DNA from: a virus
Taxonomy: Duplodnaviria > Heunggongvirae > Uroviricota > Caudoviricetes
Virus record (IMG/VR): IMGVR_UViG_2529292882_000015
Strand: one strand, 5' to 3'
DNA: 39,577 bases
Part shown: positions 2,681 to 32,463 of the stretch, in pieces
How positions within the stretch are numbered: position 1 is the first letter of the stretch
How the letters are laid out: every line of letters begins with the position of its first letter
Translations under genes and position numbers: made by a program
Notes under the pieces: model-generated
What the model saw: only the letters and a program-made list of their open reading frames with translations
The model's database searches: none
What the model was told of the DNA's origin: nothing

Positions 2681-3083
2681 CGTCTTTTCTCCCCGGGATA
2701 AGGTCGCGCGGATTTTCAGAGCTGTGATACAGCCAGATACCAATGCGGACAGCAACGATTGCTGATACGAAAGCACCGGCAGAAAACACAATGCCCTTCT
2801 CAAAAGAATCCTGCGTGATCGTTGGTATAAGGCTGGCAACACCGATGAGAATTGATGCTGTCGCTTTGTAGAAGAGAACTCCGCAGAGGAAGCTGAGAAT
2901 AGCCAGGATCAGCCGCCGTTTTATTGGGTACTCAACTGCCGAGGTAACAAAAATTACCGCACCAGCAAGAGCACCTAACGCTACTTCTGGAGGAACCCCG
3001 GCAACAACGGAAGCCAGCGCACCAAGGCTAAGCCCCTGATTAAGTGACTCCGTTGTCAGCGTGGTTGCCATAGTGACCACCAT
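2667..3083 (-). CDS. Holin-like multi-TM membrane protein
   Basis: 138 aa with several hydrophobic helices and a charged C-terminal tail (RKDDGQS); immediately upstream of the endolysin. Exact start uncertain (3083 or 3071). Confidence 0.5.
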   Translation of the reverse strand: MVVTMATTLTTESLNQGLSLGALASVVAGVPPEVALGALAGAVIFVTSAVEYPIKRRLILAILSFLCGVLFYKATASILIGVASLIPTITQDSFEKGIVFSAGAFVSAIVAVRIGIWLYHSSENPRDLIPGRKDDGQS

Positions 3084-3185
3084 CTATTGTGCATAATAAC
3101 CTCCTTAGTTGGAGAGTTTATCATACACATTTTAACCATATATGGTTGGCTGTGATTGATTATATCTATGGCATATTTTTAACGA

Positions 3186-5588: not shown

Positions 5589-5692
5589 GTTAATTCTCCA
5601 GATAGTCGCAGCACCCGTTGCGCCGCATATCCGGTTATTCTATTACCCGAAAAACCACATATGGATAGACAACCCATAAATACGAATAGATA

Positions 5693-5744: not shown

Positions 5745-5764
5745 TACTGTATAAATATACAGTT
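5745..5764 (+). promoter_or_regulatory. LexA (SOS) box overlapping a promoter-like region
   Basis: TACTGTATAAATATACAGTT matches the consensus TACTGTATATATATACAGTA at 18 of 20 positions with the CTGT-N8-ACAG core; preceded by TTGATA (-35-like); 20 bp upstream of the ATG at 5784. Confidence 0.7.
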
Positions 5765-5783
5765 ATTGCATGGAGAAGATAAG

Positions 5784-6041
5784 ATGCAGCAGTATCACTA
5801 TCCACTGGAAGACGGATTTACCGAAAGGATTCACACGCCGGGAGGCGTCAGGTCACTGGTGGAGAGATCGCACTTGATGAAATTACTCCGGGATCTCGAT
5901 AAGGATGGATTTAATGTCGATGGCCCACTTGCCGAACTGACTGCACTGATTAACTACGTCACCAGCTCACAGATGTCTATGCAGGATCTGCAAACACATC
6001 TCGACTATTGTGCCGAACAATTACGAAAACAAACCAGATAA
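5784..6041 (+). CDS. Small SOS-regulated antirepressor-like protein (paralog of the antirepressor C-terminal domain)
   Basis: 85 aa from the ATG at 5784 with RBS GGAGAAG; clearly similar to the C-terminal ~70 aa of the downstream antirepressor (...LMKLLRDLDKDGFNVDGPLAELTALINY...DLQTHLDY vs ...LMNLLNRLQEDGHDVSGAAAELTTIFCY...DIQTHAEY). Confidence 0.6.
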   Translation: MQQYHYPLEDGFTERIHTPGGVRSLVERSHLMKLLRDLDKDGFNVDGPLAELTALINYVTSSQMSMQDLQTHLDYCAEQLRKQTR

Positions 6042-6072
6042 GGTTTGTAATTACCAAGTGGAGTGCTTATAT

Positions 6073-6087
6073 TTACCTTTGCGGTAA
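6073..6087. promoter_or_regulatory. Operator-like palindrome TTACC-N5-GGTAA (site 2 of 13)
   Basis: TTACCTTTGCGGTAA, in the intergenic region between the small antirepressor-like gene and ant. Confidence 0.5.
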
Positions 6088-6354
6088 ATTTACATCGCAC
6101 TCCTCTTGTGCCATAGTAGTCGGGCACTGGCAAAATCCAGTGCCGGGATTGGCGTCCCGGGTTACTACAGAGGCACATATGCCGCATAAGCGGTTTTTTT
6201 TATGTGTAAAGCGCACCTATTCTATGGTGGGCTGTGTGGGGGCACCGAAAGGTGCGCCGGGTCCTTTGTAGCCGGTTACGCCAACCCTGCACAGTTCACC
6301 ACCAACCGATTGGCGTCGGTAGTGGTGATTAACCTAACTACAAAGGTGATCACT

Positions 6355-7041
6355 ATGACTGCTAACGTAACCCCATCTGTTTTTCATTTTGAATCAGAAG
6401 CAACCATTCGAGCCATTGTTATTGATGGAAATCCTTGGTTTGTTGCCAAAGACGTTATTAAAGCTCTTCAACTGACAAACCCCACTATGTCAATAAAATC
6501 TCTTGATGATGATGAAAGGGCTAAATTTAACTTAGGCCGTCAAGGCGAAACCAATATTATCAACGAGTCAGGCCTCTACACACTGATCCTCCGCTGCCGC
6601 GATGCGGTGACACCAGGCACTATCCCCTACCGCTTTCGTAAATGGGTTACAGGTGAGGTTCTTCCTCAGATCCGCCGCACCGGAAGTTACATTAAAAACT
6701 CGCTCCCGCAGGAAGAACGCATAAAGATGGTTGCCGACCAGGTAGCCAACGCCACAGCATCAGCAGTGATGCAGGCAATGAAGATAGAGAACAAAACCTA
6801 CAGCGCCCCACTGAAGCCCGGCTACCGCAGTCTGATTCATTCTCCGTCTGGTGTTCTCGGCTTGACGGAGAACTCACTGCTGATGAATCTGCTGAACCGG
6901 TTACAGGAAGACGGGCACGACGTATCGGGCGCGGCGGCGGAGCTGACCACCATATTCTGCTACATCGTCGGTGTGAGCAAATGCCTGCGTGATATCCAGA
7001 CACACGCGGAGTACATCAACGACAAGGCAGGGTTCTTCTGA
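6355..7041 (+). CDS. ant: Antirepressor, Bro-N domain family
   Basis: Bro-N-like N-terminus (ATIRAIVIDGNPWFVAKDVIKALQLTNPTMSIKSLDDDERAK); RBS AAGGTGA upstream of the ATG at 6355; sits beside the tailspike gene as in P22 immI. Confidence 0.75.
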   Translation: MTANVTPSVFHFESEATIRAIVIDGNPWFVAKDVIKALQLTNPTMSIKSLDDDERAKFNLGRQGETNIINESGLYTLILRCRDAVTPGTIPYRFRKWVTGEVLPQIRRTGSYIKNSLPQEERIKMVADQVANATASAVMQAMKIENKTYSAPLKPGYRSLIHSPSGVLGLTENSLLMNLLNRLQEDGHDVSGAAAELTTIFCYIVGVSKCLRDIQTHAEYINDKAGFF

Positions 7042-7107
7042 CATGACGGCGGCACAGGGATGTGCCTTTAAATAATTCTGTACAGATTGCAGGTGAATAG
7101 CTTACTA

Positions 7108-7122
7108 TTACCTCACGGGTGA
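7108..7122. promoter_or_regulatory. Operator-like palindrome TTACC-N5-GGTGA (site 3 of 13)
   Basis: TTACCTCACGGGTGA, upstream of the leader mini-ORF and terminator that precede the 7252 gene. Confidence 0.5.
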
Positions 7123-7211
7123 TCCATAGCGATTAGGCACCGATACAGGAGGAGCCCACATGAGAAAATTTGACGAGTACGAAGGCGTTTAACATTCGGA
7201 TAGTTTAATGA

Positions 7212-7234
7212 CGGGGCCATTAGGCCCCGTTTTC
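7212..7234 (+). terminator. Rho-independent terminator/attenuator hairpin in the leader of the 7252 gene
   Basis: GGGGCC-ATTA-GGCCCC followed by GTTTTC; about 20 nt downstream of a 10-codon mini-ORF (7160-7192) that has a strong AGGAGG RBS. Confidence 0.45.
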
Positions 7235-7251
7235 ATGTCTGGAGACAGTTT

Positions 7252-7791
7252 GTGTTAAGTGAAGAAATGCAATTTGCCATGGCTGTAGCTCAAATCGTAA
7301 GTGCAGTCGCGGTTTCGCTTGGCTTGTTCATAGCTATCGCTACTATTATTTATAATGTAAATACAGCGAGAAAAGTACACACTTCAGTATTCCTTGGTGA
7401 AAGCAGGTTTGATGTAGATTATAAGAAAGGCCTATCTACTATGCGCCGCATTCACGAATCGAACAAATCATTCCGCTCTTATATGTATCCAAGCAATGGG
7501 CAGGCTGATCTTACGGATGAAGAAAAGACAGAGAAGAGAGAAATAATTTACTGCCTAGGTTTCTACGAACGCATGGCTGTGAGCGTGAAGCGGAAAACTT
7601 ATGATGAGACCATGATTAAGGAAGTATTTTACAGCTCCGTTGTAAATAACTATCAGATTGCGCTACCTCTTATACAAGCCATTAGAGAAAAAGAAAACAT
7701 AAACACATATTTTAAAGAATATGAATGGTTGGCCACACGATGGAAGGATTGTCCATTGAAGGATAAATCCCCGTGGTACAAGTTTTGGTAA
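7252..7791 (+). CDS. Membrane-anchored protein, candidate superinfection-exclusion/abortive-infection moron
   Basis: GTG start with RBS GGAG; N-terminal TM helix (AMAVAQIVSAVAVSLGLFIAIATIIY) then a soluble domain; AT-rich coding sequence unlike neighbours; plus strand inside the minus-strand late region, at the position sieA occupies in P22. Confidence 0.6.
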   Translation: MLSEEMQFAMAVAQIVSAVAVSLGLFIAIATIIYNVNTARKVHTSVFLGESRFDVDYKKGLSTMRRIHESNKSFRSYMYPSNGQADLTDEEKTEKREIIYCLGFYERMAVSVKRKTYDETMIKEVFYSSVVNNYQIALPLIQAIREKENINTYFKEYEWLATRWKDCPLKDKSPWYKFW

Positions 7792-7813
7792 GCCCGCGTT
7801 GCGGGCTTTTTTA
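7790..7813 (+). terminator. Rho-independent terminator after the 7252 gene
   Basis: AGCCCGC-GTT-GCGGGCT followed by TTTTTT, directly after the stop codon. Confidence 0.6.
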
Positions 7814-7884
7814 TGGACGAAACAAAAGTTAGTGCTACACTCATTGACGCCACATTGAGGTGGCTTATAGATGGAAATTTCACA

Positions 7885-8046
7885 ATGAAAAAAGCATTTG
7901 CTGCACTGTTCGTTTTGTTGTCTCTGGTAGCTTCAACTCAGGCCTTTGCCGGTAGTTGTCAGCACGACAGCGACACTGCTGCTGACGGCTCCCGCTGCGG
8001 TGGGCGTTCTGCGGATTCCCGCCCTGGCGGCGGTGGTATTCGTTAA
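7885..8046 (+). CDS. Small secreted Cys-containing peptide (about 54 aa)
   Basis: Signal peptide MKKAFAALFVLLSLVASTQAFA, then a Gly/Ser/Asp-rich mature peptide with two Cys. RBS is weak, so the call is tentative. Confidence 0.4.
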   Translation: MKKAFAALFVLLSLVASTQAFAGSCQHDSDTAADGSRCGGRSADSRPGGGGIR

Positions 8047-8068
8047 AAACAAGGCCGCGAAAGCGGCC
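8043..8068 (-). terminator. Rho-independent terminator ending the minus-strand late segment (possibly bidirectional)
   Basis: GGCCGC-GAAA-GCGGCC with TTGTTTTTAA immediately 3' on the minus strand; lies just past the stop of the 8078-8374 gene. Confidence 0.5.
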
Positions 8069-8069
8069 T

Positions 8070-8081
8070 GTGACATGTCAC
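8070..8081. repeat. 12-bp perfect palindrome GTGACATGTCAC (copy 1 of 3)
   Basis: Exact palindrome; the TGA stop of the minus-strand gene 8078-8374 lies within it; adjacent to the 8043-8068 terminator. Confidence 0.7.
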
Positions 8082-8374
8082 GTTCCTTTTCTGAATGATA
8101 GCCGTTCGAAAAATGATGACATTCCACCGCAGACAATAGCAAAGATGATCCCACCAAAGAAGAGAAGGCCAGCCTGCCACCACTCCCACCGCCATACATC
8201 CACAGCGCCAACCATACCAACAATCGCTCCAACAAATGGAATATAGCTCACGATGAAAGCAATGGGGGCTGCAATTATCCAGTGCAATCCCCACCATGAT
8301 TCAAGCCCAGCCATAATTGCTGCCAACTGAAAAAGACCAACGACGATATAAACAATGAATCCTATAGCTTGCAT
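8078..8374 (-). CDS. Small Trp-rich multi-TM membrane protein
   Basis: 98 aa, about three TM helices, RBS AGGTGA; follows the last large ejection-protein gene. Confidence 0.5.
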   Translation of the reverse strand: MQAIGFIVYIVVGLFQLAAIMAGLESWWGLHWIIAAPIAFIVSYIPFVGAIVGMVGAVDVWRWEWWQAGLLFFGGIIFAIVCGGMSSFFERLSFRKGT

Positions 8375-19447: not shown

Positions 19448-19770
19448 TACTCACCCCCATTGCCGTACAGAGTTTCAGCCGCTGATTTTTCTACATCCCC
19501 GGAAACAGGAGCGATCGCCATATCAGTGATCTGCAGATCGGCGCTGCGATTAACACCATCGTCAGTTTCTCTGGCAGACAGGCCTCGAATAACAGCCTTT
19601 GCAGTTATCATCACTTCTGTTCCGACGCCCTGAGGTTGCGCCTTCAGCTTATTCAATGTGTCGTTATTAAGAGTGATGCACAGCCCCCACGGGTATTCAT
19701 CGCGAGTTCTGGTTTCTCCGCTCTCATCCTGGTAGCTGTCAGTGCCGGTTTTGAGGTTTACGAGTTCCAT
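19447..19770 (-). CDS. Small structural-module protein of unknown function
   Basis: ORF in the late operon; start placed at the second ATG (MELVNLK), 9 nt after AGGAG. Confidence 0.45.
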   Translation of the reverse strand: MELVNLKTGTDSYQDESGETRTRDEYPWGLCITLNNDTLNKLKAQPQGVGTEVMITAKAVIRGLSARETDDGVNRSADLQITDMAIAPVSGDVEKSAAETLYGNGGE

Positions 19771-24548: not shown

Positions 24549-24638
24549 ATCAATGACTCCGTACGCAATTAAATTATTACCAATTTAACCACATATGATT
24601 TATTTATCGTAGATGGTTGACATTTAACGCACAAATTA

Positions 24639-25249: not shown

Positions 25250-25606
25250 ATGAACGACCAGCAAATCGAAAAAGAAATCGTTGAGAAAGGCAAAACGGCA
25301 CCGCGAGTTACGCCTCAATATATCGAAAGCATCATTCTTGAAGAGCATTTCTTTACTGCTTATGACGGCATTCGTGCTGCCAATATGGGCGTTGGCGATT
25401 CATGGACAGCGCATAAATCTACAGACCTCCTGACTTTCTGCGTACTGGTGCTGAAGAATGGCTTCACCGTCACCGGAGAAAGCGCCTGTGCAAGTCCGGA
25501 AAATTTTGATGCAGAAATTGGTCGGAAGATTGCCCGGCAGAATGCTGTAAACAAAATCTGGATGCTCGAAGGTTACTTGCTGAAGCAGAAGTTAAGCGAG
25601 CAATAA
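25250..25606 (+). CDS. Conserved phage moron protein of unknown function
   Basis: 118 aa; RBS AGGTGAG preceded by hairpin CCCGG-TTCG-CCGGG plus T-run; plus strand between TerL and portal; motif VTGESACASPENFDAEIGRKIA. Confidence 0.6.
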   Translation: MNDQQIEKEIVEKGKTAPRVTPQYIESIILEEHFFTAYDGIRAANMGVGDSWTAHKSTDLLTFCVLVLKNGFTVTGESACASPENFDAEIGRKIARQNAVNKIWMLEGYLLKQKLSEQ

Positions 25607-25610
25607 CACC

Positions 25611-25622
25611 GTGACATGTCAC
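25611..25622. repeat. 12-bp perfect palindrome GTGACATGTCAC (copy 2 of 3)
   Basis: Exact palindrome 4 nt after the moron stop codon and 4 nt before the terminator hairpin. Confidence 0.7.
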
Positions 25623-25623
25623 A

Positions 25624-25653
25624 AACAGCCAGCCTATGAGCTGGCTTTGTTTT
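25624..25653. terminator. Bidirectional rho-independent terminator between the moron gene and the TerL 3' end
   Basis: AGCCAGC-CTATGA-GCTGGCT flanked by ACAAAC upstream and TTTGTTTT downstream. Confidence 0.55.
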
Positions 25654-25696: not shown

Positions 25697-27172
25697 TTAA
25701 GCATAAGGGTCATAATCCGTTATGGCCCTTCCCTGCTGGCTTTGCTGTCCTGGTATATTTATGCGTTTCGAGACCGGGAAAGCAAACGTCAGCAATAGCG
25801 CATCGCCTTTCCCCGGCGAACGCCCAAGTCGATCCTTGATATCTTCCTTCGGTTCGATAACGATTTTACCGTCCACGCGAACTTTGTACTCTGCCGTCGA
25901 CAGGTCGTCCGCTGTTTCCTGGTCATCCAGCATGCCGCCGAGCCTCAGCCATGTCTTGCATGAGTTGAACATCTCCCCACGCTTGTTGAGCATCTGCGGG
26001 TCAGTAGACGCGCCACCGAACGGAACAAGTTGCCATGTACGACCCCAGCCGTCACCGATTGACTTCAGACCAGTTCCGTAACCGAAGTCGATGAACACTG
26101 CGTCAGCCTGATACTGGTCTTCAAAGTCAGCGATACGCTTCGCCATAATCAGATCGTCGGTAGTCTTGTTGCCAGTCCACAGCACCTTACTGTGTAGCCC
26201 CTGCCGCAGGTATATCACCGCGTCATCAACGCCTGAATATGCCGGGTCAACACCGATTATCACCGGAGCATGCGCCACCTGCGCAGCGGTTACCACCCGT
26301 TTCATTGCCTCATCAGTAAGACCGGTAGGGATAAACTGCAATTCAGATGCATCAGGGAATATGCCGCGCACACGGATTTTAACGAAGTCGCTGTCTTCCC
26401 CGTAGTCATCAACCCATTTCTGCAACTGCTGTTTGTTAGTGCCTTCCACCGTTCGGCTGTCAATCTGCGCAGTTTTCCAGCGGTGTTTATATTTGCGGAA
26501 ACATTCGCGAAAACGCCCGGTGTTACGTGTAGGGTTTCCGAACGCCACCCAGATAATCTCAGTGTCTTCGTCCGTTAGCGCACCCTCGGCAACTTCCCAC
26601 ACCAGATCCGCAATGTTCGACGCTTCATCAAACACCACGATGATGCGTTTGCGCTCGTTGTGTAGTCCGGCGAATGCCTCAGTGTTGTGCTCAGACCAGG
26701 GGATTGCGTCAGCTCGCCACCGCTTGTCGTGCCCAGGATCATTGCTGTACATCGCGGTAGCGGTACAGGTAAACCAGTCTTTCGTGATAGCAAGGTTCGA
26801 CCACTTGATAATTTCCGGCCAGGTCTTCGTTCGTAGCTGGTTGTCGGTGTTGGCGGTCACCACGACCTTACAATCCTCGCAAGTGGACATGCCCCAGTTG
26901 ATCAGCATTGAGATGAATGCGGATTTACCAATACCGTGACCAGAAGCGCGTGCCAGCATAAGCGGCTGATAGCGCGTCTCTGGATTCTGCAGGTGATCAC
27001 GTATCTCTCGGAACGCATCAGCCTGCCACTGACGTGGGCCGGTAGCATGTGCCAGTTCAGTCCCCTCTTCCCCCCACGGGAACGCATAGAGGGCATAGCC
27101 AAGCGGATCGTGAGTGAACCCTGCAATATCCTCGATCAACTGCTCTTCAGGAGATAACGCTGTATCTTTCAC
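25697..27172 (-). CDS. Terminase large subunit
   Basis: 491 aa with Walker A-like ARASGHGIGKS and a nuclease-type C-terminal region; GTG start overlaps the TerS stop (GTGA). Confidence 0.85.
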   Translation of the reverse strand: MKDTALSPEEQLIEDIAGFTHDPLGYALYAFPWGEEGTELAHATGPRQWQADAFREIRDHLQNPETRYQPLMLARASGHGIGKSAFISMLINWGMSTCEDCKVVVTANTDNQLRTKTWPEIIKWSNLAITKDWFTCTATAMYSNDPGHDKRWRADAIPWSEHNTEAFAGLHNERKRIIVVFDEASNIADLVWEVAEGALTDEDTEIIWVAFGNPTRNTGRFRECFRKYKHRWKTAQIDSRTVEGTNKQQLQKWVDDYGEDSDFVKIRVRGIFPDASELQFIPTGLTDEAMKRVVTAAQVAHAPVIIGVDPAYSGVDDAVIYLRQGLHSKVLWTGNKTTDDLIMAKRIADFEDQYQADAVFIDFGYGTGLKSIGDGWGRTWQLVPFGGASTDPQMLNKRGEMFNSCKTWLRLGGMLDDQETADDLSTAEYKVRVDGKIVIEPKEDIKDRLGRSPGKGDALLLTFAFPVSKRINIPGQQSQQGRAITDYDPYA

Positions 27173-27765
27173 TGATTACCATCCTGACGTTCTTTGAGTC
27201 GCTTCCTGGCTGCTGCTATGCGATCAGCAATTGTCACATTCACATTAACATCCAGACGTTCTTTGAACGCGTTGACATCAACATGCTTACCAATCAGCTC
27301 AAGGTTCTTCACCTTGTCAGGCCATTTAATTTTTTTGAGGATTGTCTCTATCGAATCCTCGTTCATGTTCATGATGGTCGATGACAGATCAAAGCCACTA
27401 AGCGTAGTGCGCCAGATTTTCGGCCACTCACGGATTGGTTTAAGGCTCCCATCGTCGTTGAGGATGTCGATCACGTCCATCTGGTCGATCTCCACCAGGC
27501 GCATGAGAACGTAATCAGCACTGACGCGCATTCGTTTGTTGCGCTCCTCCATCAACTCGGCAATCCGTTTTTGAATGCGTTCATCGCGCATCATGACACT
27601 GGCTTTAACTGCCGCTGTATTTGGGGAGAATCCTGCATTAATCGCTGCCTGAGTCTGGTTTTCAGGCGTTTTGATGTATGACTGGCAATAAGCCTCCTGC
27701 ATTGCTGTTAGTGGCTTAAATTGCGTTGATTTGCGTTTATAGGTTTTAGGTTCAGCAGGCATCAT
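27169..27765 (-). CDS. Terminase small subunit
   Basis: DNA-binding N-terminal region (LTAMQEAYCQSYIKTPENQTQAAINAGFSPNTAAVKASVMMRDERIQKRIAEL) typical of small terminases; start placed at ATG 27765 (MMPAEPK); directly upstream of TerL. Confidence 0.75.
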   Translation of the reverse strand: MMPAEPKTYKRKSTQFKPLTAMQEAYCQSYIKTPENQTQAAINAGFSPNTAAVKASVMMRDERIQKRIAELMEERNKRMRVSADYVLMRLVEIDQMDVIDILNDDGSLKPIREWPKIWRTTLSGFDLSSTIMNMNEDSIETILKKIKWPDKVKNLELIGKHVDVNAFKERLDVNVNVTIADRIAAARKRLKERQDGNQ

Positions 27766-27782
27766 AACCACCGTGGTAATAG

Positions 27783-27797
27783 TTACCGTTGTGGTAA
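27783..27797. promoter_or_regulatory. Operator-like palindrome TTACC-N5-GGTAA (site 5 of 13), overlapping direct repeats upstream of TerS
   Basis: TTACCGTTGTGGTAA; overlaps two ACTATTACCAC direct repeats (minus-strand reading) about 20 bp upstream of the TerS start. Confidence 0.5.
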
Positions 27798-27807
27798 TAG
27801 TAACATG

Positions 27808-27834
27808 CAAAATAAAGCCGCCATAGTTGGCGGC
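27808..27834 (-). terminator. Rho-independent terminator between the early-right operon and TerS
   Basis: Minus strand GCCGCCA-ACTA-TGGCGGC followed by TTTATTTTG, about 40 bp upstream of the TerS start. Confidence 0.5.
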
Positions 27835-27875
27835 AGTATTCAAAGTCCATCAAATTCATCATGCACAATCTACTC

Positions 27876-27887
27876 GTGACATGTCAC
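27876..27887. repeat. 12-bp perfect palindrome GTGACATGTCAC (copy 3 of 3)
   Basis: Exact palindrome; the TGA stop of minus-strand gene 27884-28222 lies within it in the same register as at copy 1. Confidence 0.7.
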
Positions 27888-28222
27888 ACTATTAATTTCG
27901 TTTCATGCCAGCCTTTAGTCACCCAGCATTGCGAGTCACCATTACACGGGCATGAATTAACTGGAACTCTCTCGCCGCACTTACCGCAACATTTTCTGCT
28001 GATCGATTTTATACGCCCGCGCACGCGTGCATCATCCTGCCGGATCAGTAACGCTATATACTCACCAAATTCGTAAGGCGCACGCCCGGGGCGACGCGCG
28101 GCACAGTTACGCTCAAGCATTTCAATTTCCTGAGCATCAAGCACAATCTCCAGCTTACGCACACCAGATGCAGCTTGTCTGGCTCTCTGAGCGGCTTTGC
28201 GCTCTGCTGCTGATTTAGCCAT
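27884..28222 (-). CDS. Cys-rich putative zinc-binding protein, candidate late-gene regulator
   Basis: 112 aa, basic N-terminus, C-terminal Cys cluster (CCGKCGERVPVNSCPCNGDSQC); last early-right gene before the terminator and TerS. Confidence 0.45.
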   Translation of the reverse strand: MAKSAAERKAAQRARQAASGVRKLEIVLDAQEIEMLERNCAARRPGRAPYEFGEYIALLIRQDDARVRGRIKSISRKCCGKCGERVPVNSCPCNGDSQCWVTKGWHETKLIV

Positions 28223-28496
28223 TGATATTCACCTTTATCGCGAACACCTTTACCGGTTTATCGCCGAAGTGCGGATGTGTGATTGTCTTGATTTCATATC
28301 CGTCATACGGAACATCAATTCTACGGCTGGAATCGTCGCGCTTCGGATATCCCTTTGTGATAATCAGGCGGTCATATTCCCGGAACATGATTCGCTTATT
28401 CCAGTAGTCATTACACAGGCGATACTCTTCCGTTTTCTCTCCGCGAGTCATGGCATCGAAGTATTCACCTTTAACGGCAAGTTGAAGGTTAGCCAC
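28215..28496 (-). CDS. Small protein, possible ASCH/PUA-like fold
   Basis: 93 aa; N-terminal pattern LQLAVKGEYFDAMTRGEKTEEYR resembles ASCH-type domains (by memory, unverified). Confidence 0.45.
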   Translation of the reverse strand: MANLQLAVKGEYFDAMTRGEKTEEYRLCNDYWNKRIMFREYDRLIITKGYPKRDDSSRRIDVPYDGYEIKTITHPHFGDKPVKVFAIKVNING

Positions 28497-28857
28497 GGTT
28501 AACCCCCTGCGGCGGTTCGGGTAACGCTTCCAGTGACGCTTTTACAAACCACGCGGCCTGAACTATTACGCCATGAATCCAGCGCAAATCAGCATCGCGA
28601 TCTTTCTTTTTCATCTTTTCGCCACTTAAAGCCTGGCTTATGTGGCTGCGAACCAGGTTTTCATGTAATTCCTTCGCATCCTCAATGGTGAAACCACCAG
28701 GCAGGCGAGCCGGAGTTACCGGAGAGTTGCCAGCCTTACGCATGGCCATTTCCACGATTTCAACCATATCTCCTGGTGGAATTTTACAAAGTTGCCCAAT
28801 ACATTTCTGCTGCCTGGCATATTCGAGAATGTGCTCCAGTTTGGTTCGATTAATCAT
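28489..28857 (-). CDS. Hypothetical protein (nin-like region)
   Basis: 122-aa ORF with overlapping start/stop to its neighbours. Confidence 0.45.
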   Translation of the reverse strand: MINRTKLEHILEYARQQKCIGQLCKIPPGDMVEIVEMAMRKAGNSPVTPARLPGGFTIEDAKELHENLVRSHISQALSGEKMKKKDRDADLRWIHGVIVQAAWFVKASLEALPEPPQGVNRG

Positions 28858-29360
28858 TATTTATCTCCCTTAAGCATGGCGGCGCGGCAGGCGTTCCAGC
28901 CACCTCGGAAAGTGTCATCAAAAGAGTCATCTTCCATGAACCGACGCTTGTACTCTTCGCGGGTTAGCTCATCAGGCACAGATACCGGTGCTGGCTGCCA
29001 CATTCCTGCCAACACGGTTTCAATCTGGTCAAACACAGCCTGCATGTCAGAAACATCAGTTATGACAGCGGGCGTGAAGATGTGGCGCATGGTGGCGTCA
29101 CCTATCTTGTAGAATTCCGGCGCTGGCGGTGCGGTGTAGAGCGAGCCAGGCTTGATATCATGACGACGCATACGGATATCACAGGTTCGCTCTTCGTTTG
29201 GCGAAGACCATGCGACAACATCAGCCACAGCCTCCGCTTCGAGCGATGCCAGCGCGATACGCGCCAACTCGTTCAGGATTGCCACATCAGCGTGACCGAG
29301 GGTGTAACCAGCTTTCAAATCGGCAACTGCTTGGACGGCATGTTTGTCGATGTTGCTCAT
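28857..29360 (-). CDS. Hypothetical protein (nin-like region)
   Basis: 167-aa ORF, translationally coupled. Confidence 0.45.
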   Translation of the reverse strand: MSNIDKHAVQAVADLKAGYTLGHADVAILNELARIALASLEAEAVADVVAWSSPNEERTCDIRMRRHDIKPGSLYTAPPAPEFYKIGDATMRHIFTPAVITDVSDMQAVFDQIETVLAGMWQPAPVSVPDELTREEYKRRFMEDDSFDDTFRGGWNACRAAMLKGDK

Positions 29361-29542
29361 TGGAACCTCACATGATTCTTCCAGCGATTCTGTGCTGCGC
29401 TGTTTTTGAATTGATGCCCTTCACGGCTAACACCACCGAGCGTGAAGAGAACCATGCGTCGATTGCTTACATTCAGCCATTGGCGCGGGTAGCAGTTTTT
29501 CAGAGCGCGAAGAACGATGATTTTGGCTTTACGGTTTTTCAT
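29357..29542 (-). CDS. Small basic hypothetical protein
   Basis: 61-aa ORF with ATGA overlaps on both sides. Confidence 0.35.
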   Translation of the reverse strand: MKNRKAKIIVLRALKNCYPRQWLNVSNRRMVLFTLGGVSREGHQFKNSAAQNRWKNHVRFQ

Positions 29543-30400: not shown

Positions 30401-30447
30401 TTAAAAACCACATAAGACACGAAATCAATAGATTTTAGAATATTTTA

Positions 30448-30462
30448 TTACCCAACAGGTAA
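30448..30462. promoter_or_regulatory. Operator-like palindrome TTACC-N5-GGTAA (site 7 of 13)
   Basis: TTACCCAACAGGTAA, in the intergenic region after the P-like gene. Confidence 0.5.
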
Positions 30463-30499
30463 TTATCAAGACGTAAAAAAATGCGCTATCGCGCTGGTA

Positions 30500-32415: not shown

Positions 32416-32441
32416 TATGAAAAGACCGCCGGATGGCGGTC
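32416..32441 (-). terminator. Rho-independent terminator after the cro-like gene (tR1-like)
   Basis: Minus strand GACCGCC-ATCC-GGCGGTC followed by TTTTCATAT. Confidence 0.5.
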
Positions 32442-32463
32442 TACAGAGGTTTGTGGCTGGATA

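Follow-up and report, generated by a model that had tools for sequence, protein, structure and literature searches.

How do phages of the epsilon15/phiV10/SPC32H type pass from early to late transcription? To our knowledge, late-gene control in this group, which includes O157 typing phages and serotype converters, is not understood. We address the question in IMG/VR record IMGVR_UViG_2529292882_000015, a stretch of 39,577 nucleotides (39.6 kb) that we call the window. It is the complete genome of a Uetakevirus-type temperate podophage with phiV10, epsilon15, TL-2011b, ZX5 and SPC32H among its relatives, and it carries the late and early-right genes on the minus strand and the repressor gene rep and the left operon on the plus strand. 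The locus of interest is the seam between the terminase genes, of which terS comes first, and the last early-right gene of the delayed-early ('nin') unit, which encodes a Cys-rich protein of 112 amino acids (aa). Coordinates are given on the plus strand, and the junction elements are read on the minus strand.

A first-pass annotation of this seam had listed a Cys-rich open reading frame (ORF), a palindrome, a terminator and direct repeats ahead of TerS, with space for a promoter between them, and had likened the whole to a compact lambda Q/pR'/tR' antitermination arrangement. All the listed elements are where it had placed them and, with the exception of the promoter, they stand well beyond chance. 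The junction nevertheless consists of three stacked, separately evolving elements and is no compact lambda Q switch: a regulator, its probable site and a terminator remain from that picture, while the promoter and the operators drop out as parts of it. We hold this composite anatomy, together with the pairing of the gene with its palindrome, with high confidence.

The palindrome at the stop codon and its companion protein

The palindrome GTGACATGTCAC occurs in exactly three copies in the window, starting at 27876 (P_A, at the stop codon of the 112-aa gene), 25611 (P_B) and 8070 (P_C), with no near-miss copy at one or two mismatches; about 0.04 sites of the form GTGAC-NN-GTCAC are expected per genome by chance. 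We assembled about 230 loci from viral and bacterial contigs, locating the homolog in each by a family hidden Markov model, and found GTGAC-NN-GTCAC at its stop codon (offset -1) in 122 of 141 distinct loci, whatever gene follows. Gene and site thus co-occur across at least six phage lineages, which bears out the association of palindrome and candidate regulator. The site is present in every identity bin from 31 to 100%, with 62 of the 71 loci below 50% identity carrying it, and the exceptions are mostly one-mismatch variants, truncated ORFs and record ends. It stands at the end of N15 gene 46, after gpA in a P2-like Yersinia phage, in Klebsiella phage BUCT711, at the end of the left operon ahead of xis in Pantoea phage AH07, and 2 nt past the TAA stop of the homolog in Pectobacterium phage ZF40. 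The distant loci L237, L238 and L242-L247 have it too, the first copy in L246 starting 2 nt past a TAG stop. Usually the TGA of the homolog is supplied by the site itself, in unrelated phage types, and what comes next varies by lineage: terS, N15 gene 47, xis, accessory genes of P2-like phages or lysis genes.

The half-sites are invariant, the central dinucleotide varies by lineage (AT, GC, TG, CT, AC and others), no compensatory changes in the half-sites were seen among the compared loci, and P_A folded as an RNA hairpin (dG -2.9) is no more stable than shuffled sequences. This combination is in keeping with a symmetric dimer that recognizes double-stranded DNA. An RNA-level element was also considered and rejected: the hairpin is at shuffle level, a predicted long-range pairing with sequence past the terminator is not conserved in relatives, and an Rfam scan of the junction region in the window gave no match. 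Because the stop-codon site is kept across loci regardless of the downstream gene, P_A and its counterparts are probably the binding site of the 112-aa protein family, an assignment read from comparative sequence.

A full-text search of the open-access literature (PubMed Central (PMC) papers under Creative Commons licenses, and bioRxiv) returned no mention of the palindrome, and the gene-plus-site module is apparently undescribed there. The 'gp46' reported as expressed in telomere-phage lysogens (PMC12042878) is the CB repressor in that numbering and not the homolog discussed here, and the paper on phage ZX5 (PMC9782041) deals with the repressor, antirepressor and integrase and does not cover the junction region.

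The window protein is the counterpart of epsilon15 gp49, phiV10 p55 and N15 gp46, matches PHROG 536 ('transcriptional regulator') end to end, and has no matching Pfam family. The family numbers 766 clusters at 90% identity; at 50% an exhaustive search found no more than 156 representatives, which makes it small and compact. It ranges over temperate phages of Enterobacteriaceae and Vibrio, a GC-rich lineage and phage-plasmids, and enterobacterial prophages hold many close homologs of the window protein, which bear no gene names. Aligned, 56 members (27-77% identity) share a basic N-terminal helix with nearly invariant R8 and R13, then the beta-alpha-alpha core and a long helix, and end in the Cys-rich zinc knuckle, which in the 112-aa protein reads C79-x2-C82 ... 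C91/C93 ... C99, H106. With this alignment the AlphaFold2 model reaches a predicted local distance difference test (pLDDT) score of 91.2, compared with 58 for a shallower one, and displays the beta-strand followed by two helices that define the ribbon-helix-helix (RHH) superfamily, whose members are obligate dimers. By this prediction, the N-terminal two-thirds of the protein form an RHH DNA-binding domain that would act as a dimer. Pfam matches to RHH families are weak, all of them under the curated cut-offs (RHH_5 in 2 of the 56 members, E = 0.013; RepB-RCR_reg in 2; RHH_1 in 1).

The first-pass annotation had suggested comparing the protein with the Q family and with the Ogr/Delta-type zinc-finger activators, and it fits neither. 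Its model does not match the Q fold, the Q families of Pfam (Antiterm, Phage_antitermQ, Phage_antiter_Q) matched neither the window protein (E <= 1) nor any of the 56 members (E <= 0.1), and PHROG 536 is a family distinct from Q. Ogr/Delta proteins of P2, P4 and 186 have about 70-80 aa and a C-x2-C-x22-C-x4-C pattern, with TGT-N12-ACA at about -55 of late promoters; no such zinc finger was found in the 112-aa protein, whose pattern is C-x2-C-x8-C-x-C-x5-C on an RHH domain. Among PDB sequences, the family profile best matches the RNA-polymerase-binding zinc-finger proteins TraR (E = 0.047) and YbiI (E = 0.058), over the long helix and the C-x2-C-G-x2-(I/L)-P segment of the zinc knuckle. Pfam zf-dskA_traR, a C-x2-C-x17-C-x2-C pattern after a coiled coil, matches neither the whole family proteins nor their C-terminal halves, and the fourth Cys has a different position in the 112-aa family. 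Because Pfam fails to confirm the marginal profile match, we keep a TraR/DksA-like C-terminal domain as no more than a weak lead.

A predicted RHH fold combined with a short palindrome for a dimer is reminiscent of Arc/MetJ/CopG and of MatP. Half-sites GTGAC...GTCAC are also those of the 13-bp E. coli matS site GTGACRNYGTCAC, and both systems have few, dispersed single sites per genome and no operator arrays. The protein could then be a MatP-like architectural factor whose dimers bridge the approximately three dispersed palindromes and loop the genome, for example isolating terS-terL; in the model, the long helix and the extra C-terminal domain could mediate the oligomerization that this calls for. 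We consider it improbable. The site is 12 bp long with a 2-bp spacer, compared with 3 bp in matS, the window protein has an added zinc knuckle, and sequence homology to MatP is not detectable (hhalign probability 0.5%, BLASTP E = 12). Site positions are non-syntenic between lineages, the site at the gene's own stop codon excepted. That site overlaps a stop codon and the others cluster beside terminators, not promoters, which is unlike both matS and ordinary RHH operators.

Table 1. Positions of the junction elements and of related features in the window and in distant relatives
Feature	Position	Strand	Basis or remark
112-aa protein gene	28222..27884	minus	ORF list; PHROG 536
Palindrome P_A, GTGACATGTCAC	27887..27876	symmetric	Exact 12-mer; TGA 27886-27884 is the stop of the 112-aa gene
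Spacer	27875..27835	minus	41 nt between P_A and hairpin
Relic 8-codon ORF	27840..27866	minus	44 distinct intergenic sequences from 91 loci compared
Intrinsic terminator	27808..27840 including flanking A/T pairing	minus	Folding; kept in 88/91 terS-linked loci
Operator O1, ATTACCACAACGGTAAC	27782..27798	symmetric	17-bp motif, 1 mismatch
Operator O2, ATTACCACGGTGGTTAT	27764..27780	symmetric	17-bp motif, 1 mismatch
terS, small terminase subunit	27169..27768	minus	Pfam Terminase_2 E = 1e-29; PHROG 51
terL	27172..25697	minus	ORF list; directly after terS
Palindrome P_B	25611..25622	symmetric	Identical 12-mer between terL stop (25697) and stop of convergent plus-strand moron
Palindrome P_C	8070..8081	symmetric	Identical 12-mer; supplies the stop codon (TGA) of a gene for a 98-aa late membrane protein (8374..8078)
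Rep-type operators	32778 (cro/rep intergenic); 33490, 33552 (downstream of rep, left-operon promoter)	symmetric	17-bp motif, <=1 mismatch
Rep-type operators	30385, 30447 (nin region); 24638 (ahead of gene 3); 27764, 27782 (ahead of terS)	symmetric	17-bp motif, <=1 mismatch
Rep-type operators	5692 (ahead of tailspike); 7107 (inside ant block)	symmetric	17-bp motif, <=1 mismatch
CATATGTGGTT elements	30406-30416 (nin block), 24587-24597 (gene 3, portal/head block)	minus	Motif, <=1 mismatch
CATATGTGGTT elements	5653-5663 (tailspike), 3134-3144 (lysis)	minus	Motif, <=1 mismatch
pR'-like promoter regions	L238:3450-3660; L237:3430-3553; L246:about 2990-3120; L236:9015-9055		Downstream of RHH gene

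Terminator, repressor operators and the expression of terS

The spacer between P_A and the terminator had been thought able to hold a promoter. Its sole promoter-like match, GTGACA-18-CATGAT, agrees at 9 of 12 positions and is no better than chance (1 match in 27000-29500, with 3.2 expected in shuffles). We compared the 91 loci that have terS after the homolog, which amount to 44 distinct intergenic sequences: the match is not conserved, and the putative -10, CATGAT, sits at a deletion junction inside a relic ORF (GTG CAT GAT GAA TTT GAT GGA CTT TGA, VHDEFDGL*). Many close relatives (the 227-nt class) retain an intact 70-aa accessory ORF here (MPKIRYDL...FYDEFDGL), with its Shine-Dalgarno sequence right after the palindrome, and the window relic reads as its in-frame deletion remnant. 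The palindrome-terminator slot is an accessory-gene hotspot, holding the 70-aa ORF, an 85-aa SOS-box gene or an umuD-like SOS-box gene (L090:300-470 in BUCT711, and L200, L201, L206, L208). The 85-aa gene of L200 was considered as a homolog of the antirepressor Ant and shows no similarity to it.

The hairpin that follows, claimed earlier as a terminator, is indeed a strong intrinsic (Rho-independent) one. It reads GCCGCCAACTATGGCGGC plus TTTATTTTG at 27834..27808 (stem 27834..27817, T-tract to about 27808), with arms GCCGCC-AACT-ATGGCGGC followed by TTTATTTTG and flanking A/T pairing, that is, a 7-bp stem (6 GC) with a 4-nt loop and the tail UUUAUUUU. Its folding energy (dG -16.2 kcal/mol, z = -4.8) was equaled by 0 of 200 shuffles, and the phiV10 and epsilon15 records annotate the homologous hairpin as a terminator. 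Among terS-linked relatives, conservation extends as a single block over the terminator, O1, O2 and the terS start. The palindrome-terminator distance is 23-24, 40-42, 226-227 or 324-330 nt depending on the locus, and 3 of the 91 loci (L201, L206 and L195, with three distinct intergenic sequences) have lost the terminator, apparently without replacement, so a compact, fixed promoter-terminator geometry is not a feature of the lineage.

These same losses and the unconstrained spacing could mean that the junction has no dedicated regulation, the terminator being a constitutive attenuator that keeps terminase low and the palindrome serving a function unrelated to terS. Terminase is needed in catalytic amounts, which would suit such an arrangement. 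The tight conservation of the terminator-to-terS block and the recurrent adjacency of palindrome and terminator (at P_B, at P_C and in other phages) argue otherwise, and we regard an unregulated junction as very unlikely.

The direct repeats are 14 nt long, 13/14 identical, at 27804..27791 and 27786..27773 with a spacing of 18, and the exact 11-mer ACTATTACCAC occurs in the window only in these two. They lie on two tandem 17-bp inverted-repeat operators (O1, ATTACC-ACAAC-GGTAAC; O2, ATTACC-ACGGT-GGTTAT), the left repeat overlapping the ATTACC half-site of O1 and the right repeat that of O2; O2 also covers the terS Shine-Dalgarno sequence (GGTGG) and start codon (ATG ATG at 27768/27765). At one mismatch or fewer, ATTACC-N5-GGTAAT is found at 10 sites in the window compared with 0.13 expected. 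Syntenic operator sets exist in epsilon15 and BUCT711, and the O1 position is conserved in all terS-linked relatives. Since the sites flank rep, since the epsilon15 RefSeq record annotates the syntenic operators as repressor sites ('repressor; lysogeny'), and since AH07 and the P2-like Yersinia phage (YenM) have no such set though the RHH gene and palindrome are present there, we assign the direct repeats to the operators of the Rep/Cro immunity system. Their membership in the motif is direct, and Rep, in the window a double helix-turn-helix protein 42% identical to SPC32H Rep, is the presumed ligand. The repeats and operator-like palindrome described at first are therefore real and are immunity operators instead of parts of a late Q-type switch. 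Binding by the RHH protein or a role as a pac site was also considered for the repeats and rejected: the operator copies are genome-wide, include the immunity region and are absent from other phages with the RHH gene.

Operators stand ahead of most units, late ones included, suggesting that the repressor directly controls or blocks late units. With at least 10 copies spread over the immunity region and most unit starts, the set is like the SPC32H/epsilon15 Rep operators, the 'stoperators' of L5 and the C1 operators of P1. The position of O2 over the terS ribosome-binding site, past a terminator, resembles a block of elongation and fits a lysogeny lock; the window operators are symmetric, whereas stoperators are asymmetric and orientation-dependent, and Rep binding is here an inference.

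How, then, would terS be transcribed? The window has exactly four minus-strand copies (<=1 mismatch) of a promoter-like element in which CATATGTGGTT is followed 5-6 nt later by GGTAATAGAAT or GGTAATAAT; the element comes 28-40 nt after a Rep-type operator. Four syntenic sites exist in epsilon15, and the gene 3 and tailspike copies also in BUCT711. No such element lies upstream of terS in the window. At 30469..30442 a sigma70-like promoter is predicted whose spacer holds an operator, and no minus-strand terminators were found between about 30.4 kb and the 112-aa gene. Because no terS promoter motif was found, we propose that terS-terL probably belongs to the nin unit as its distal portion and is transcribed, as far as the sequence can tell, when polymerase reads through the terminator at 27834..27808; passage of this terminator probably matters for terminase expression.

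The poor -35 region of the CATATGTGGTT elements suggests that these promoters depend on an activator. No Q, Ogr/Delta or Mor/C protein turned up when the early-right and left operons were scanned against PHROG and Pfam. The left operon encodes a PerC-family activator at 37190..37486 on the plus strand (PF06069, 30.2 bits with a cut-off of 22.6; PHROG 868), and this protein is a candidate activator of the CATATGTGGTT promoters. In the early-right operon, a terminator-like minus-strand hairpin at 32423-32442 (AGACCGCC-atcc-GGCGGTCT plus TTTCATATCT) directly follows cro and is thus placed like tR1; the window yielded no N-like antiterminator.

Palindromes at the boundaries of transcription units

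The two further copies of the palindrome in the window have no co-directional gene downstream. P_B lies 4 nt from a hairpin (25627..25646) that is a canonical terminator in the direction of the convergent moron. This moron (25250..25606, plus strand) encodes a 118-aa PHROG 322 protein between terL and the portal block, and is bracketed by its own terminators and P_B. P_C is followed, 1 nt on, by a canonical terminator (8069..8052 plus TGTTTTT), and closes late unit 2 where it faces the convergent plus-strand ant operon (5766..8046). That four-gene block begins with an ORF (5766-6041) 88% identical to the SPC32H antirepressor Ant, preceded by a CTGT-N8-ACAG LexA/SOS box at about 5747-5762 and divergent from the tailspike gene.

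All three palindromes are syntenic in epsilon15 and SPC32H, with P_B counterparts at 2142 and 2145 and P_C counterparts at 19517 and 19634, respectively, and P_C has another in BUCT711 (18526). The hairpins beside the SPC32H copies of P_B and P_C are non-homologous to those of the window and the palindrome is still adjacent, so the adjacency appears to be selected. Site numbers are uniformly low: three in the window, epsilon15, SPC32H, N15, Vibrio phage K308 and ZF40, four in BUCT711, and two in AH07 and Vibrio phage 10N.237. The second site of 10N.237 is 13 nt from a bidirectional terminator, and the N15 site at 28550 closes the repA operon, with a terminator and then the ant operon beyond it. 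Taken across phages, the terminator adjacency of the extra copies is suggestive and not uniform.

Based on these positions, we propose that a dimer of the 112-aa protein would recognize GTGAC-NN-GTCAC, as co-inheritance of gene and site implies, and would act on RNA polymerase during elongation, at the points where transcription units reach their 3' ends. As a roadblock or a helper of terminators, it would limit transcription leaving its own operon, an insulating role and not a Q-like activation. P_B and P_C would close the terS-terL and gene 3-to-gene 18 units against oppositely oriented accessory genes, including the SOS-inducible antirepressor operon, and the bound protein would keep convergent units from invading each other. 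Low expression of terS-terL would come from the fraction of transcripts that start at the nin promoter(s) near 30.4 kb and get past both the palindrome and the terminator, and in a lysogen Rep at O1/O2 would shut this read-through path. The proposed mode is like that of eukaryotic TTF-I/Reb1, mitochondrial mTERF1 and bacterial repressor roadblocks such as LacI or CodY, where a protein at a 3' end stops polymerase, possibly in both directions, beside a release element; we know of no dedicated DNA-bound termination factor encoded by a phage.

Several observations weigh against this proposal. A roadblock at P_A would lower terminase expression, an odd thing to select. Judging from footprint sizes, a polymerase stalled at P_B would stop before finishing the adjacent hairpin, which makes a hairpin plus a roadblock awkward. 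Extra copies also lie inside genes (N15 repA, ZF40 cII and gp08, BUCT711 virion genes, AH07 Q), and elsewhere the palindrome is 9-45 nt upstream of co-directional starts (N15 gene 47, the 70-aa ORF, xis, K308 terS), where there is no unit boundary; the K308 copies are 19 nt upstream of start codons, that of terS included. The palindrome is assigned to the protein by co-occurrence alone, and read-through as the source of terS transcripts follows from the failure to find a promoter, so that an unconventional one is conceivable. We therefore view the boundary or roadblock function as tentative, and the full package of anatomy, gene-site module, boundary function and terS read-through as having somewhat less than an even chance of being right in every part.

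Alternatively, the protein could be an ordinary operator-type regulator that represses or activates the promoter, or blocks the gene, right after its site, in which case the window would have lost the target gene by deletion and P_A would be an orphan. Nearly all characterized RHH proteins are repressors. Candidate targets would be the accessory/SOS genes after P_A, N15 gene 47 and xis. In BUCT711, L200, L201 and L208 only 2-8 nt separate the palindrome from the start of an SOS promoter, with the -35 of the LexA-box promoter at this distance in BUCT711, L200 and L208, and the site is 9-19 nt upstream of starts in the 70-aa ORF variant, N15 and K308. P2-like Yersinia phages (L088:7292-7340 and relatives) carry another palindrome, an imperfect one (GTGACGTGTCgt), at 33 bp or roughly three helical turns past the stop-codon site, which could be read as a paired operator. 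On the other hand, neither P_B nor P_C is followed by a co-directional gene or a promoter, the adjacency to terminators is left unexplained, and the downstream genes are unrelated between lineages while the register of the site on the stop codon is constant. We consider such operator function quite unlikely, and retain the boundary role as the working proposal.

Two neighboring features deserve mention. In L088 and its relatives, the second palindrome is followed by a terminator and then by a LexA-box promoter, at the position of the SOS-inducible tum of phage 186. In K308, the region from the RHH homolog to the holin gene (L087:4184-4281) gives a full-length Rfam match to the Qrr quorum-regulatory small RNA (46.6 bits with a gathering threshold of 50, E = 8e-6), and this element may be a phage-encoded Qrr-like small RNA.

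Relation to Q antiterminators and significance

In four distant sublineages (L238/L242-L244; L237/L245/L247; L246; Vibrio phage 10N.237), a pR'-like layout lies 51-147 nt past the palindrome: a near-consensus promoter is followed after 6 nt by a second, pause-like -10 hexamer (TAnCGT), a leader, at least one terminator, and genes for lysis or other late functions. The layout resembles lambda pR' and the annotated Q-dependent promoter of N15. L237 and L238 share a conserved leader hairpin. The idea that the 112-aa gene occupies the slot of Q thus holds for these relatives, but the window has no conserved promoter or pause element at this junction, and a search for the promoter-plus-pause pattern returned nothing in the window or in epsilon15.

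The resemblance raises the possibility that the protein is a Q-like antiterminator of a new structural class, which would bind the palindrome, transfer to polymerase and suppress nearby terminators, switching on terS-terL here and lysis or late genes elsewhere. Like the lambda Q/pR'/qut/tR' modules (Q-lambda, Q82, Q21), the gene is the last of the early-right operon, its site comes immediately after it, a terminator precedes the late genes, and the protein has zinc-binding cysteines; a site abutting its own gene is the cis-acting logic of Q, and in the distant relatives a pR'-like promoter carrying a -10-like repeat comes after the gene, as do terminators. The homolog is the last early gene directly before late genes in Uetakeviruses, K308, 10N.237 and the L238 and L246 types, with lysis genes next in the latter two. 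In a non-exhaustive set of upstream candidates from the pR'-type phages no known Q was detected, nor was one in the window. It also speaks for antitermination that terS has no promoter motif of its own, that P_A and P_C precede terminators, and that the best PDB profile matches, TraR and YbiI (E about 0.05), are polymerase binders.

Much of this evidence discriminates poorly or points the other way. Any last early gene adjoins the late promoter, and adjacency is therefore uninformative. The RHH fold is unlike that of any known Q, no Q Pfam family matches, and Pfam gives no sign of the likeness to TraR. The palindrome is too variably placed for a Q-binding element: it precedes the -35 by 51-147 nt in the pR'-like cases, and 23-330 nt separate it from the terminator in Uetakeviruses. 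In the window it is outside any promoter. Members of the RHH family coexist with a genuine Q in N15, AH07 and L239, and a P2-like phage with an RHH homolog keeps a separate 72-aa regulator at the Ogr position; in these phages the RHH gene is not adjacent to late promoters. Extra sites mark the 3' ends of other units, P_B comes after its hairpin in the late direction, and the other late units own a promoter-like motif. Antitermination by the protein is in our view unlikely.

Antitermination and the boundary role that we propose would have one thing in common. It is possible, albeit doubtful, that the RHH-zinc family is a new class of transcription-elongation regulator that loads from a palindrome placed where its own gene ends and from copies at the boundaries of other units. 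As such it would be either a fourth, structurally unrelated Q-like antiterminator or a DNA-bound termination or insulator factor, and we would give that view of the family, too, well under an even chance.

Taken together, our findings separate three cis elements, each with a likely partner: the RHH palindrome, the Rep operators and the CATATGTGGTT motif. A small unannotated family present in hundreds of prophages travels with a 12-bp palindrome in a fixed stop-codon register, which constitutes a falsifiable general rule and makes GTGAC-NN-GTCAC at a stop codon an annotation marker. Such constraint is usual only in cis-acting systems (Q/qut, ParB/parS, TerS/pac). If the protein controls termination or antitermination, it would represent a new class of mechanism; if it is an insulator, it would explain how mosaic phage genomes shield convergent accessory genes, including an SOS antirepressor switch, from transcriptional interference.

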